Assembly (NCBI GenBank): GCA_050261575.1
Contig: JBLNDL010000005.1
Location: 1-64,000 of the forward strand
Source of the DNA: Sphingomonadaceae bacterium
GTDB lineage: Bacteria; Chloroflexota; UBA6077
Direction: 5' to 3'
Length of the DNA: 64,000 nucleotides
The position numbers are program-made. This document shows, in pieces, positions 57,001-60,000 of this stretch (position 1 is the first letter of the stretch; every line of letters starts with the position of its first letter).

Positions 57001-60000
57001 TGTTCGACGGTATCGCCGCCGCCAACGAGGGGATGCTGTCATCGGCCGACCTGCTCCGGAAAGCGATCGACGTGGCGGACGCGAGCTTCGGCGCCCTGGC
57101 GCACAGAGCCAACGGCGCGGTCAAGACGATCCAGGTGGGTATTGGGACCCTGAACCCCGACAAGATCAACATCCTCCTGCTGGGCAACATCCCAGCGGGG
57201 CAGGCGGGCAAGATCGCCAAGGCTCTTGGCTCCAACGCCAAGGTCAATCTGGTCGGCGCGGTGGGCGGCGAGGCGGCAGGCCTGCCGGTCGCGGGCAACT
57301 ACAACAGCCAGGAGGCGCTCCTGGTGACCACCGCCGTCGACGGCGTTGTCGTCGGCAAGGCATGCGTCTCCCCCGGCTTCCTGGCGCTGGCAGCCAAGCA
57401 GGGCGTGCCGGTGGTGGAGGCCGACAAGTTCGACGCCGCCGGCCTGCTGGATAAGGCCGAGACCCACTACCGCCAGAACGCCGGCCGCAGCATCGCCGCG
57501 AGGTTCGCCCGCGTCGCGGCCACAGTGGGCTTCGCTGCCTCCACCTTCGCCTCCCTCTCCGCCCAGCAATGGGGCGAGCTGGCCAAGTCGGGCATCAAGG
57601 GAGTGGCGATCGTGGGCGGCTGCAACAACGCCATCGAGACCCAGGACGCCGCCATCGTCCGCCAGGCCGATGAGTTTCTGAAGAACGACGTGCTGGTGAT
57701 CGCCAGCGGCTGCGCCGCGGTGGGCCTGGCCAAGGCCGGCTACATGGATCCGGCCAAGGTGGGCTCCCTCGCCGGCAAGGGGCTGCAGGCGTTCCTGGCC
57801 GCCCTGTCCGGCGCCACCGGCACCCAGCTCCCCGCGGTCCTCGAGGCCGGTAGCTGTTGGGAGCTGCCGACGGCTGTGGAGTTGGCCCAACTGTTCCAGA
57901 AGCGACTGAAGTTGCCCCTGGCTGCCGCGATGCCGGAGCTATCCAGGCCCGCCGCGTGGAGTTCGGCTCTCGCCGTCGCCGCGCAGGGTGTCCCCACCTA
58001 CGTGGGGCCGGTGCTCCCCCTCGACGGCGGCCTCCAGACAGTTCAGGCTCTCAACGATATGCTGAAGGCCAGGGGCGGATCCATCGTGGGCCCTGGCCAG
58101 ATCGGCGATCCCGAAGCCTTCGTGAACTCGGTGATAGGTAACGAGTGATGAGTCGTGAGTGGATAGCCACTCATCTCTCGCAACTCATCACTCATTACTG
58201 GTTAAGGAGATAGCCGAGATGCTAACTGACGAAACCAAATGCATCGGCTGCGGCAGATGCATTCCCTTCTGTCCAGTGCAGGCCCGCTCGTTTGGGCGCG
58301 CGGCCACCACAGGGCGGACAGTGATAGTGATAGACAAGGATCGGTGCACCGAGTGCGGCGTGTGCGAGCGCACGGCTCCCTGTCCGGTGGACGCCATCCA
58401 CCAGGACGTGCTGGAGTGGCCCCGCCAGGTTCGAGGGATCCTCTCCAACCCGCTGGTGGAGTTCAAGGGCACCGGCATCCCCGGCCGAGGCACCGAGGAG
58501 ATCAAGACCAACGACATCACCGGTCGGGTGAAGTACGGCAGGGTCGGCGTCGGCATCGAGGTCGGCCGGCCAGGCGTCAGCGCCCGCTGGACCGAGGTCG
58601 AGAAGATCTCCATGGCGCTGGCGAAGCTGGGGGTCGAGTTCTGCGCAGAGAACCCCATCACCCACTTCATGGTGGACAAGAAGACCGGCAAGCTCGATCC
58701 CGCAGTGGTGAACGAGGTCTCCCTCTCCGCCATCGTCGAGTTCGAGATGGCCGAGGATCGACTGCCGGAGCTGTTCCGGGTCCTCCGCGAGGAAGTGGAC
58801 GACAAGATCGACACGGTCTACACCTTCGAGATCGCCGCGCGGCTGAAGCCCGATGGGACCACGACGGTGGTCCAGAAGATCCAGGACGCGGGCTATCAGA
58901 TGCTCACGGTCAGCAAGAACAACCTGGGCCTCGGGCGGCCGCGATACCAGGATGAGGAGGTGCCAGCATGACCCACAGCCTGCATCGCCGCGGCGACGTG
59001 GAGAGCCTCAAAAAGGACTTCCTGGTTCTGGCCTGCACGGCCAAGGGCCACAACGACAAGGTGTTCGCCCCGCTGGGCAGCGAGTTTGCTCGGATCTGCG
59101 CCAAGCACAAGCCGGTCAACGGCGGCGACATGAAGACGGGCAACCTGCTCTACGTGGATGCGGAGACGATCGCACAGAAGGTGTCCAGCAGCACCATCAT
59201 CGAGTTCACCTTCGACAACAAGCAGAACGTCATCGACTGCATCAAGGAGTTGAAGGAGCGGGACCTGGGCATCTCCGTGGTGATCACCGGCATGATCGAC
59301 GAGGTGAACGACATCGTCGAGAAGGCCGGGCTGCCCAAGGTCCACACCCGAGAGTACTCCCTGGGCACCCACGGCAAGACCAAGCTGCTGCCGGAGTGGG
59401 AGGTGCTGGAGTTCACTACCATGTGCGGCCACGCCATGGTAGCCAACGAACTCGTGAAGAAGTCCATCGTGGATGTCAGGAAGGGCCGCGCCTCCGCTCG
59501 AGAAGCCGCGGTGACCATGGGGAAATGCTGCTCCTGCGGCAACTTCAACATCAACCGCGCCGTGGAGCTAATCGAGAAGAACGCCCCTCTCTGGACGGCC
59601 GACTATCCTGTGTACTAATCGGAGTGGGTTGGGGCCCGACATCGGTCCTGAGTACTGAGTCCCACTGCTCAGGACTCAGCACTCAGGGCTCGACACCGAC
59701 CTCTGACCCACGTGGAGGGGATACATGAAACATCTGATAGTGGGCAACGGGCCGGCCGGCATCAGTGCCGCCAGGACCCTCCGGAAGATCGCGCCGGAGG
59801 ACCAGGTGGTGGTGCTGGCGGAGGAGGCCCAGCCCTTCTACTCCAAGGTGCTCACCTCCTACTTCGTCGGCGGCAAGGTTCCCTACGAGAACATGCTCCT
59901 GGCCAACTCGGAGCAGTTCCAGGATCAGGGCATCCAACTGCGGACGGGCAAGCAGGCGGTGAGGGTGGATGCCGCCGCCAAGGAGCTGCTGCTCTCCGAC

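Follow-up and report, generated by a model that had tools for sequence, protein, structure and literature searches.

A widespread, unnamed pair of Fe-S proteins encoded with a shortened CO dehydrogenase: a possible small-carboxylate oxidoreductase

Aldehyde oxidoreductase AorABC is built from a catalytic unit, a CooF-like protein and a FAD subunit. Phenylglyoxylate dehydrogenase PadEFGHI follows the same plan; both enzymes are coupled to NAD, and their catalytic units work with TPP/CoA or with tungstopterin. PMC6344411 gives an account of a CO-oxidising CooS-CooF-FNOR module, in which electrons presumably reach NAD(P). A short CooS next to cooF, the mini-CooS of Thermosinus carboxydivorans, was described by Techtmann 2012 (PMC3328121), where the passages devoted to it report that the C-cluster ligands are retained, treat the protein as a possibly functional CODH and make no mention of the genes considered here. 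It was assigned to Ni-CODH clade G in the relevant part of PMC8776680. The filters described in the main accounts of PMC6344411 and PMC8776680 discard CODH sequences that are short or lack ligands. Finally, the clade B CODH of Ruminococcus flavefaciens, as presented in PMC13592312, is a CODH scaffold put to a new use and linked to a solute transporter, with its C-cluster retained.

The operon analysed here lies in a window of 64,000 nucleotides (Table 1). It shares a short CooS beside cooF with T. carboxydivorans, and the same three gene types and presumed NAD(P) electron route with the CooS-CooF-FNOR module. In contrast to that module, two family-less genes, encoding subunits A and B, are always added, and in most cases the CODH lacks its active site. 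The relationship to PadEFGHI and AorABC is seen in the carriers: the best NCBIfam match of the FNOR is PadH (306 bits for a cut-off of 475), and the CooF-like protein has AegA-, DmsB-, HydN- and PadI-type matches, all under cut-off. By profile, however, A/B matches neither type of catalytic unit, and no pterin- or TPP-binding Pfam or NCBIfam domain was detected in A or B.

Table 1. Genes of the operon and of the adjoining regulatory pair, in window coordinates.
Feature	Position	Strand	Evidence
CooF-like 4x[4Fe-4S] electron-transfer protein	56100..56681	+	Pfam Fer4_11, E 2.7e-18
mini-CooS, 487 aa	56685..58148	+	Prismane/CODH family; 169 bits, under the curated TIGR01702 cut-off of 478
Subunit A, 250 aa	58219..58971	+	ATG start behind AAGGAG; 2[4Fe-4S] plus GRGTxExK
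Subunit B, 216 aa	58968..59618	+	family-less; H6, R7, D17, H126, C153, H155, C188, C190, N194 conserved
FAD/NAD(H) oxidoreductase, FNOR type	59725..60963	+	Pyr_redox_2, E 5e-65
DcuR/DpiA-like response regulator	61206..61937	-	related pair beside the operon in L080 and L081
DcuS/MalK-family carboxylate sensor kinase	61942..63876	-	NF008298, 542.8 bits, above the cut-off of 520

The A and B genes overlap via ATGA. The CooF-like gene probably starts at the TTG at 56124, behind AAGGAGG, and the true start of the sensor kinase probably lies about 85 codons inside the ORF given. The response regulator likely controls the five-gene operon, and a related sensor/regulator pair stands beside the operon in two other loci (L080 and L081), the regulator alone in a third (L006). 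Promoter and terminator scans of the region gave signals no better than chance, and neither the PADLOC search for defence systems nor the comparison with plasmids returned a match.

We favour, with a probability of roughly 0.55, the reading that A/B forms the catalytic head in a new family of small-carboxylate oxidoreductases, of which we infer the substrate, the reaction and the metal, and which would be connected to NAD by way of mini-CooS, CooF and the flavoprotein.

The pair itself is common. As the initial annotation stated, the genome carries six A/B pairs: tblastn recovers six A and six B genes, each A paired with a B, on contigs C5, C70, C25 (two pairs), C76 and C29, the other copies being 36-46% identical to that of the window. 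The claimed adjacency also holds, with A directly upstream in 175 of the 178 B copies that could be tested and B directly downstream of all 175 testable A copies, for 157 loci in all. The figure of 505 B homologues was obtained again; that of 916 for A was not regained, a different query (A residues 62-245) giving 582. The family comprises 873 clusters when grouped at 50% identity and no fewer than 3033 when grouped at 90%, and includes archaeal members. In samples drawn from two anaerobic phyla it is present in 34/251 and 19/251 genomes, and a genome can hold as many as a dozen copies or more. A single-chain B-A fusion was also seen (P0267). A/B is a large family without a name. A literature search returned no description of it, an unnamed family being hard to target and subscription papers lying outside the search, and PMC13101534 proved unrelated; A/B genes may figure in the gene-context supplements to PMC6344411 and PMC8776680, likewise outside it.

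A CODH-like operon had been proposed as a neighbour of the pair, along with carboxylate transporters and AOR. All of these neighbours were found, and the operon does adjoin A/B, but this description was incomplete: in the window's clade, A/B belongs to a conserved module of five genes, made of A, B, CooF, a short CooS and a FAD/NAD oxidoreductase. Among the 80 loci that best match the window copy, which include many related genomes so that the counts are not independent, FNOR is present in 76, mini-CooS and CooF in 68 each, and the three together in 66; nine of the 12 loci devoid of CooS are shorter than 6 kb. Reciprocally, the eight best mini-CooS matches in 251 genomes (five candidates scored per genome, 71 matches outside the listing, and the highest-scoring subclade only) all have a B gene at a distance of about 2 kb. 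The module is found with five separate B subclades in a quick version of the B tree. Some of its parts have been fused: B is joined to a CooF-like domain beside FNOR in L113, L114, L115, P0135 and P0139, and a GltD-like NAD(P) flavoprotein is inserted into A in L143. In L144, CooF, mini-CooS and FNOR surround a shortened B, and A is missing. In the window genome, five of the six A/B copies stand without an adjoining redox partner gene.

Residues 1-65 of A form a 2[4Fe-4S] ferredoxin domain, with two CxxCxxC...C motifs, eight invariant Cys, a Pfam Fer4 match above cut-off and a structural match to 1dur_A (VIA-align Z 8.3, rmsd 1.4, 54 aligned residues); Pfam and NCBIfam matches of A are limited to ferredoxin models, over residues 2-66. 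The second domain is ferredoxin/ACT-like, with S76, R90, E94, K96, E114, R117, S170, E174, K233 and N235 invariant or nearly so. The GRGTEExKTND motif had been called fully invariant, which was an overstatement: R90 and K96 are found in 235/235 sequences, E93 in 211/235 and D99 in fewer than 85%. Subunit B belongs to no Pfam or NCBIfam family, as had been reported (best E 0.013 and 0.017, far below the cut-offs). It contains exactly three conserved Cys. In 130 sequences, pre-filtered for a His within the first 12 residues, C153, G154 and H155 occur in all, R7, C188, C190 and N194 in 129, H6 in 126, H126 in 121, H3 in 117 and T2 in 115. Thus, of the residues listed as invariant in B, C153 and H155 are so, C188, C190 and H6 nearly so, and H3 is not, being replaced by Asn in 11 sequences in spite of the filter.

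Neither Foldseek nor VIA-align gave a whole-chain fold match for A or B, blanks that do not prove a new fold. Foldseek returned nothing at E 0.001 for either model; the best VIA-align matches were 1vk8_A for B (Z 4.3, rmsd 3.5, 83 aligned) and, for the second domain of A, one at Z 5.7 (rmsd 3.0, 81 aligned), a Z of 8 being reached by the ferredoxin domain alone. Against the sequences of solved structures, the B profile had no match and the second domain of A gave rows at chance level only. ESM Atlas neighbours are unnamed clusters, as noted earlier (best at 0.96, no usable named match). The idea that A and B are ancient duplicates is not put forward: their profile match (E 0.024) beat 40/40 column shuffles, yet scored under the reversed control (19.7 against 23.0).

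The models of both subunits are of the quality initially reported (pLDDT 90.6 for B, 91.0 for A), and the heterodimer prediction was reproduced with a complex score of 0.91, the best of three controls scoring 0.00. The mark used for this score is attained by 116/157 solved and 2/215 mismatched pairs, rates that are only rough, own alignments and small molecules having been used. At least 93% of the contacts recur between runs, and the partner pLDDT is no lower than 90. In the predicted interface, A16-19, with the cluster ligand Cys18, faces B159-162, right after MCGH; R90, E94, K96, E114, R117, S170, K233 and N235 of A also take part, as do residues 1-8, H126 and H155 of B. Of the ferredoxin contacts formerly ascribed to Cys11 and Cys46, the interface list confirms Cys46 and gives Cys18 in the place of Cys11. 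The model supports a heterodimer whose interface would contain most of the conserved residues of A and B, and subunit B is predicted to carry a catalytic metal site there. The original view of A/B as a widespread unannotated metalloprotein of anaerobes, probably a heterodimer, is supported.

Three conserved Cys in a carboxylate-rich context are also a feature of aconitase, class I fumarase/tartrate dehydratase and serine dehydratase. A/B could accordingly be a non-redox Fe-S hydro-lyase, isomerase or decarboxylase, with a three-Cys cluster and an open iron; its ferredoxin domain and the module with the flavoprotein would then serve only to keep the enzyme reduced or activated. That most copies stand without redox partners would fit, as would the dehydratases, aldolases, racemases and AOR or aldehyde dehydrogenases encoded nearby, which suit a non-redox, aldehyde-forming step. 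We nevertheless hold this to be unlikely, though the least unlikely of the alternatives: eight invariant ferredoxin Cys, a three-protein chain kept in five subclades and fusions to CooF- and GltD-like proteins exceed what activation needs, and A/B, with its own 2[4Fe-4S] relay and His/Glu-rich set of residues, has no Pfam, NCBIfam or sequence match to such hydro-lyases. Profiles of three-Cys Fe-S hydro-lyases matched neither B nor A outside its ferredoxin domain, no solved-structure sequence matched the B profile, and the corresponding folds are absent from the Foldseek and VIA-align matches listed for A and B, which do not exclude families beyond those listed.

The oxidoreductase reading draws on the state of the mini-CooS, whose ligands were identified by aligning it with the solved CODH II and with the two canonical CODHs encoded elsewhere in this genome. 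The window protein keeps the B-cluster Cys (48, 51, 56 and 69) and four of six C-cluster ligands (C227, C313, C343 and C391), the equivalents of His261 and Cys295 being Asn and Ala/Val; it has no equivalent of the acid-base residue Lys563 and has lost one D-cluster Cys. Throughout 73 mini-CooS the B-cluster Cys are present, while all six C-cluster ligands are found in 9, five in 5, four in 4 and two or fewer in 55, and the Lys in 2. Because C-cluster ligands are mostly lost while the B-cluster Cys stay, the module seems to persist without CO chemistry; conservation of the module together with this loss suggests that A/B is the catalytic part of an NAD-coupled oxidoreductase.

A tree (long branches included, no clade A or HCP outgroup) places 25 operon CooS on one side and 22 canonical CODHs on the other, with a branch support of 100, and joins the window group to L076/L085 with a support of 86. 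The short operon CooS appears to be the published mini-CooS of T. carboxydivorans, the link running through A/B accessions and L076/L085. In T. carboxydivorans, accessions WP_007288586.1 (A), WP_007288587.1 (B) and WP_007288589.1 (mini-CooS) fit the order A, B, CooF, mini-CooS, FNOR of L076 and L085, an order deduced from accession numbers, and the A proteins of these two loci are 73% and 81% identical to its A. The C-cluster ligands described for that protein in PMC3328121 are, as far as that account goes, a point of difference from most of its relatives, including the window protein, which lack the full set; likewise, where the clade B CODH of R. flavefaciens in PMC13592312 retains its C-cluster, here a separate protein pair would supply conserved metal ligands.

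CO chemistry is possible, on ligand content, in the lineages with all six C-cluster ligands. These nine sequences, the two with the catalytic Lys, the canonical CODHs of this genome and CODH-type matches in 156/251 genomes of the phylum sample could be explained if A/B split a carboxylate releasing CO, or reduced one with CO-derived electrons, mini-CooS having once been a dedicated CODH whose decayed C-cluster was replaced by canonical enzymes. We think this improbable, since retention of B-cluster, CooF and FNOR in the 55 cases practically devoid of a C-cluster and the fusions that bypass CooS are left unexplained, and no CooC-like gene is among the recurrent neighbour families (in a family listing rather than a profile search).

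Carboxylate transporters, sensors and hydroxy/oxo-acid enzymes recur around the pair. In the 80 loci nearest the window copy, 38 have Tct or TRAP genes and 30 a glyoxylate-aminotransferase-like gene; in one genome (G068), 7 of the 11 B loci have TctA no more than 5 kb away, for an expectation of 0.118 per locus. GlcD/F, 2-hydroxyacid dehydrogenases, glycerate kinase, LarA, tartrate/isopropylmalate dehydrogenase-like enzymes, aldolases, FdrA/AllG and AOR or aldehyde dehydrogenase are found as well. Among 20 Bacillota stretches, three have an M20 amidohydrolase gene immediately upstream of A and one has such a gene a short way downstream of B; amidohydrolases or peptidases also flank L198-L200. 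These neighbours do not single out one substrate.

TTT and TRAP systems take up sulfonates too. Oxidation of a C-S or C-N bond in organosulfonates or amino-acid derivatives, yielding an aldehyde for AOR, might thus be considered, in view of the TauE exporter, the sulfolactate-dehydrogenase-like Ldh_2, the altronate-dehydratase-domain protein, the aminotransferase with alanine dehydrogenase and the M20 hydrolases among the neighbours. Each of these is sporadic and under the family cut-off, however, and glycerate kinase, GlcD/F, LarA and the DcuS/MalK sensors indicate plain carboxylates, so that we give this slightly less credit still. Even less credible is a carboxylate-sensing redox adaptor, or a factor assembling clusters for mini-CooS or AOR, in place of a catabolic enzyme: ACT/ferredoxin-like folds often bind small ligands and mini-CooS and AOR often adjoin A/B, but some 20 near-invariant polar residues at a single predicted interface look catalytic, the operons already have their own regulators, and A/B is kept with C-cluster-less mini-CooS and in many loci without either partner. 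The faintest prospect is that A/B holds the nickel-pincer nucleotide by an invariant Lys and a His and, as a 2-hydroxy acid dehydrogenase, passes hydride to the Fe-S chain, which would suit K96 and K233, the conserved His and Arg, the hydroxy-acid neighbours, the non-LarA folds that use this cofactor through Lys and His in the cases set out in PMC13524815, and the presence of larB in 41/42 A/B-positive genomes, yet larB is also in 33/38 A/B-negative ones, making co-occurrence uninformative, and stands in only 3/175 loci (one related group), with larA in 1/175.

For the small-carboxylate oxidoreductase, the following scheme can be proposed. An organic acid would be imported by TctABC, TRAP or a similar transporter, whose genes are observed, under the control of GntR, PrpR or DcuS/MalK-type regulators. 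It would dock where A and B meet, in a pocket lined with Arg and Lys that adjoins a metal site formed by Cys153, His155, Cys188 and Cys190 of B, residues whose conservation is observed and whose closeness is predicted, with His6, His126 and Glu94, Glu114 and Glu174 of A as further ligands or acid-base groups. The metal would most likely be a [4Fe-4S] cluster with one non-Cys iron plus a His/Glu metal site. The acid would be oxidised at its alpha-carbon; as to the exact reaction, the leading though doubtful candidate is an oxidative decarboxylation that needs neither CoA nor TPP and acts on 2-oxo or 2-hydroxy acids, in the window clade on C2-C4 acids (glyoxylate, glycolate, hydroxypyruvate, malate or tartrate, for example). 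Operon conservation, the fusions and the known role of CooF and FNOR suggest that electrons would flow from the two clusters of A to the B-cluster of mini-CooS, then to CooF, FNOR and NAD+. Stand-alone paralogues may be swappable catalytic heads for other acids, using a common electron module or free ferredoxin.

We put forward more tentatively that A/B founds a new class of metalloenzymes, with an undescribed Cys/His/Glu site, CoA/TPP-free oxidative decarboxylation, a captured CODH-CooF-FNOR chain in which CODH was cut down to a B-cluster wire in several lineages, and a panel of exchangeable heads. The conserved Cys/His/Glu/Arg site, for which no structural relative was found, is a candidate for new metal chemistry. 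If the proposed function is true, the mini-CooS clade would have a role beyond oxidising CO, and a hidden way in which organic acids are oxidised anaerobically would come to light. The link to mini-CooS makes the role of short, deep-branching CooS testable in cultured T. carboxydivorans, Sporolituus thermophilus and Desulfosporosinus lacus. Many proteins annotated as CO dehydrogenase in Desulfobacterota and Bacillota may lack a CO site and serve as relays.

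The initial annotation had described a widespread, unnamed two-gene Fe-S family in six copies, and such a family indeed exists. Six A/B pairs, 36-46% identical, are found in the window's genome. B, the subunit with THxxHR, MCGH and CxCG motifs, matched no Pfam or NCBIfam family; the matches of A, the 2[4Fe-4S] subunit, in these databases are ferredoxin models only, within its first 66 residues, and the pair is a member of no family tested. A single-sequence search with B returned 505 relatives, a profile search 873 clusters at 50% identity, and a second profile at least 3033 clusters at 90%. 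Across 157 loci, A lies directly upstream of 175 of 178 testable B copies and B directly downstream of all 175 testable A copies; P0267 is a single B-A fusion. Of the 66 genomes of the window's class, 10 have B, as do 34/251 and 19/251 genomes sampled from two other phyla. G068 has 19 matches, several of them fragments of broken copies, G336 has 9 and G521 has 8; named carriers include Thermosinus, Sporolituus, Desulfosporosinus, Desulfitibacter, Bathyarchaeota and a Sulfolobales MAG.

The A/B gene pair in the window
Gene	Positions	Strand	Product	Remark
A	58219-58971	+	250 aa	overlaps B
B	58968-59618	+	216 aa	overlaps A

Conservation in B was counted over 130 sequences, the window's and 129 of 149 representatives, the selection being limited to lengths of 185-260 aa and to chains with a His among residues 1-12. 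C153, G154 and H155 occur in 130/130, R7, C188, C190 and N194 in 129 each, H6 and D17 in 126 and H126 in 121. H3, initially taken as invariant, is kept in only 117, and the invariance claimed for the full GRGTEExKTND motif of A was likewise overstated, as residue counts over 235 A sequences reveal: S76, R90, K96, G116, R117, P118 and E174 never vary, and 232-234 of the sequences keep S170, K233, N235, E94 and R69. Both chains are modelled confidently (pLDDT 90.6 for B, 91.0 for A). Fold searches with these models found A's ferredoxin domain, weak ACT/ferredoxin-like matches for one domain per chain and no whole-chain relative. The A+B complex model scored 0.91 against 0.00 for the best control, the mark being reached by 116 of 157 solved and 2 of 215 mismatched pairs, counts that are only rough for this job; at least 93% of contacts agree between runs, with partner pLDDT of at least 90. 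Most of the polar residues conserved in the two chains fall within the predicted interface, where A16-19, with cluster ligand Cys18, faces B159-162, the stretch that directly follows MCGH; this supports a single active site common to A and B and wired to A's clusters.

In the window, the order is CooF-like (a 4x[4Fe-4S] electron-transfer protein), short CooS (a CODH relative), A, B and FNOR (an FAD/NAD(H) oxidoreductase); next come a DcuR-like regulator in convergent orientation and a sensor of the DcuS/MalK family, the latter above its family cut-off. In the region 54069-56100, the operon begins about 600 bases past dnaA, in the usual place of dnaN. A TAGACT-16-TATAAT site lies at 55550-55577, its frequency being at chance level, and short imperfect inverted repeats, seen by eye in the gaps before A (58146-58200) and after B (59620-59700), could form RNA hairpins or represent small repeated elements. 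In the 80 loci closest to the window's B, which come partly from related genomes and so give counts that are not independent, FNOR is found 76 times, short CooS and CooF 68 times each, and the full set of three 66 times; 9 of the 12 loci without CooS are shorter than 6 kb. The module occurs in at least three gene orders and, as judged from a quick tree of 113 sequences, with five separate subclades of B. The best eight short-CooS matches in 251 genomes of one phylum, which represent the best-scoring subclade only, each lie about 2 kb from B. Tandem arrays, each of two or three different A/B pairs, occur in L170, L177, L197 and L002, those of L170 and L177 behind one CooF/mini-CooS/FNOR module. 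At L144:5558-9370, CooF, mini-CooS and FNOR are grouped around a B that is shortened and has no A, and the module adjoins a [FeFe]-hydrogenase cluster of the bifurcating type as well as a dihydroxy-acid dehydratase; in G521, an A/B pair has a prismane/CODH-family gene (L233:3646-5001) two genes away on its upstream side.

L113, L114, L115, P0135 and P0139 carry fusions of B with a CooF-like domain, next to an FNOR gene, and at L143:4992-7112 the ferredoxin domain of A is interrupted, between its two cluster motifs, by a GltD-like NAD(P) flavoprotein of about 470 residues. Through these fusions A/B is tied to NAD(P)-linked electron transfer with no CooS involved. We propose, with a probability of roughly 0.55, an oxidoreductase acting on small imported carboxylates, of which A/B would be the catalytic head and in which electrons would pass from a metal site in B through A's clusters, the B-cluster of mini-CooS, CooF and FNOR to NAD+. 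By analogy with the Pad and AOR complexes, the CooF/FNOR module would imply a low-potential oxidation. Set beside the fusions, a non-redox Fe-S lyase is unlikely.

The short CooS can probably be equated with the 482-residue 'mini-CooS' found beside cooF in Thermosinus carboxydivorans, for which a role in CO metabolism was suggested in the available part of the report (Techtmann et al., PMC3328121). The accession of that protein, WP_007288589.1 in the accessible portions of PMC8776680 and bioRxiv 10.1101/2023.01.17.524042, is spaced from those of A (WP_007288586.1) and B (WP_007288587.1) as the order A, B, CooF, mini-CooS, FNOR of L076 and L085 leads one to expect; the A proteins of these loci are 73% and 81% identical, respectively, to that of T. 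carboxydivorans. In a tree drawn with no outgroup, a fully supported branch separates 25 operon CooS from 22 canonical CODHs. All 73 operon CooS proteins longer than 430 aa keep the four B-cluster Cys, while six C-cluster ligands are kept in 9, five in 5, four in 4 (the type of the window's protein) and two or fewer in 55; both D-cluster Cys remain in 6. Short or ligand-lacking sequences were left out of published CODH surveys, according to the portions available (PMC6344411, PMC8776680), which may be why this decay is absent from that text. Elsewhere, the window's genome encodes two canonical CODHs that retain every C-cluster ligand (C67:53966-56008, C53:6611-8602). Mini-CooS is split by a frameshift in L132:3472-4916, L035 and L050, through assembly error or decay. 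CO-releasing or CO-driven chemistry, with mini-CooS a true CODH, we consider decidedly improbable next to the ligand losses.

For substrate clues, annotation covered genes up to three or four places away from A/B, Pfam having been run on 115 of 161, 62 of 99 and 45 of 77 listed neighbours. Of the 80 loci, 38 contain Tct or TRAP genes and 30 a glyoxylate-aminotransferase-like gene, whose best match, below the cut-off, is BhcA. In G068, 7 of 11 B loci have TctA within 5 kb, against an expectation of 0.118 per locus. Tripartite tricarboxylate transporters are abundant in genomes rich in A/B, with 56 TctA matches in G068 (about 49 genes in a 4 Mb genome), 29 in G231, 22 in G094 and 19 in G201. Neighbours in other clades include GlcD/F, 2-hydroxyacid dehydrogenases, glycerate kinase, LarA, tartrate- or isopropylmalate-dehydrogenase-like enzymes, aconitase-like and PrpD proteins, aldolases, FdrA/AllG, PdxA, AOR, and a TPP enzyme with class III CoA-transferase; in one operon type an aldehyde dehydrogenase takes AOR's usual place. 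A recurrent operon (L146, L148, L149, L082, L160) comprises GntR, A, B, AOR/aldehyde dehydrogenase, a PCC-domain protein and a LivJ-type ABC transporter. In L147, L150 and L151, A/B lies between class III CoA-transferases and a TPP enzyme whose best match is PRK05858, weaker ones being oxalyl-CoA decarboxylase and 2-hydroxyacyl-CoA lyase. Our best guess at the reaction, a tentative one, is that 2-oxo or 2-hydroxy acids are oxidatively decarboxylated. Several Bacillota and metagenome loci have M20 amidohydrolases and peptide transporters on their flanks, and five of the six A/B copies in the window's genome have no redox partner adjoining, which together argue against a narrow reading. Sulfonates or amino acids as substrates are slightly more doubtful than the CO chemistry. 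That A/B acts as a sensor or maturation factor is very improbable. A nickel-pincer dehydrogenase is the least probable reading. The position of larB about 6 kb from B in the three related genomes of L164-L166 probably reflects chance synteny.

The three-part layout is already known. Neither the catalytic pair nor a relay-only CODH scaffold was found described in the literature, where published supplementary tables may list the genes. The nearest recent ideas, as the available parts of the sources present them, are a clade B CODH put to a new use (PMC13592312) and non-LarA nickel-pincer enzymes (PMC13524815), neither of which is the A/B family. A/B is probably a new metalloenzyme family, with a putative function, that accounts for the mini-CooS clade.
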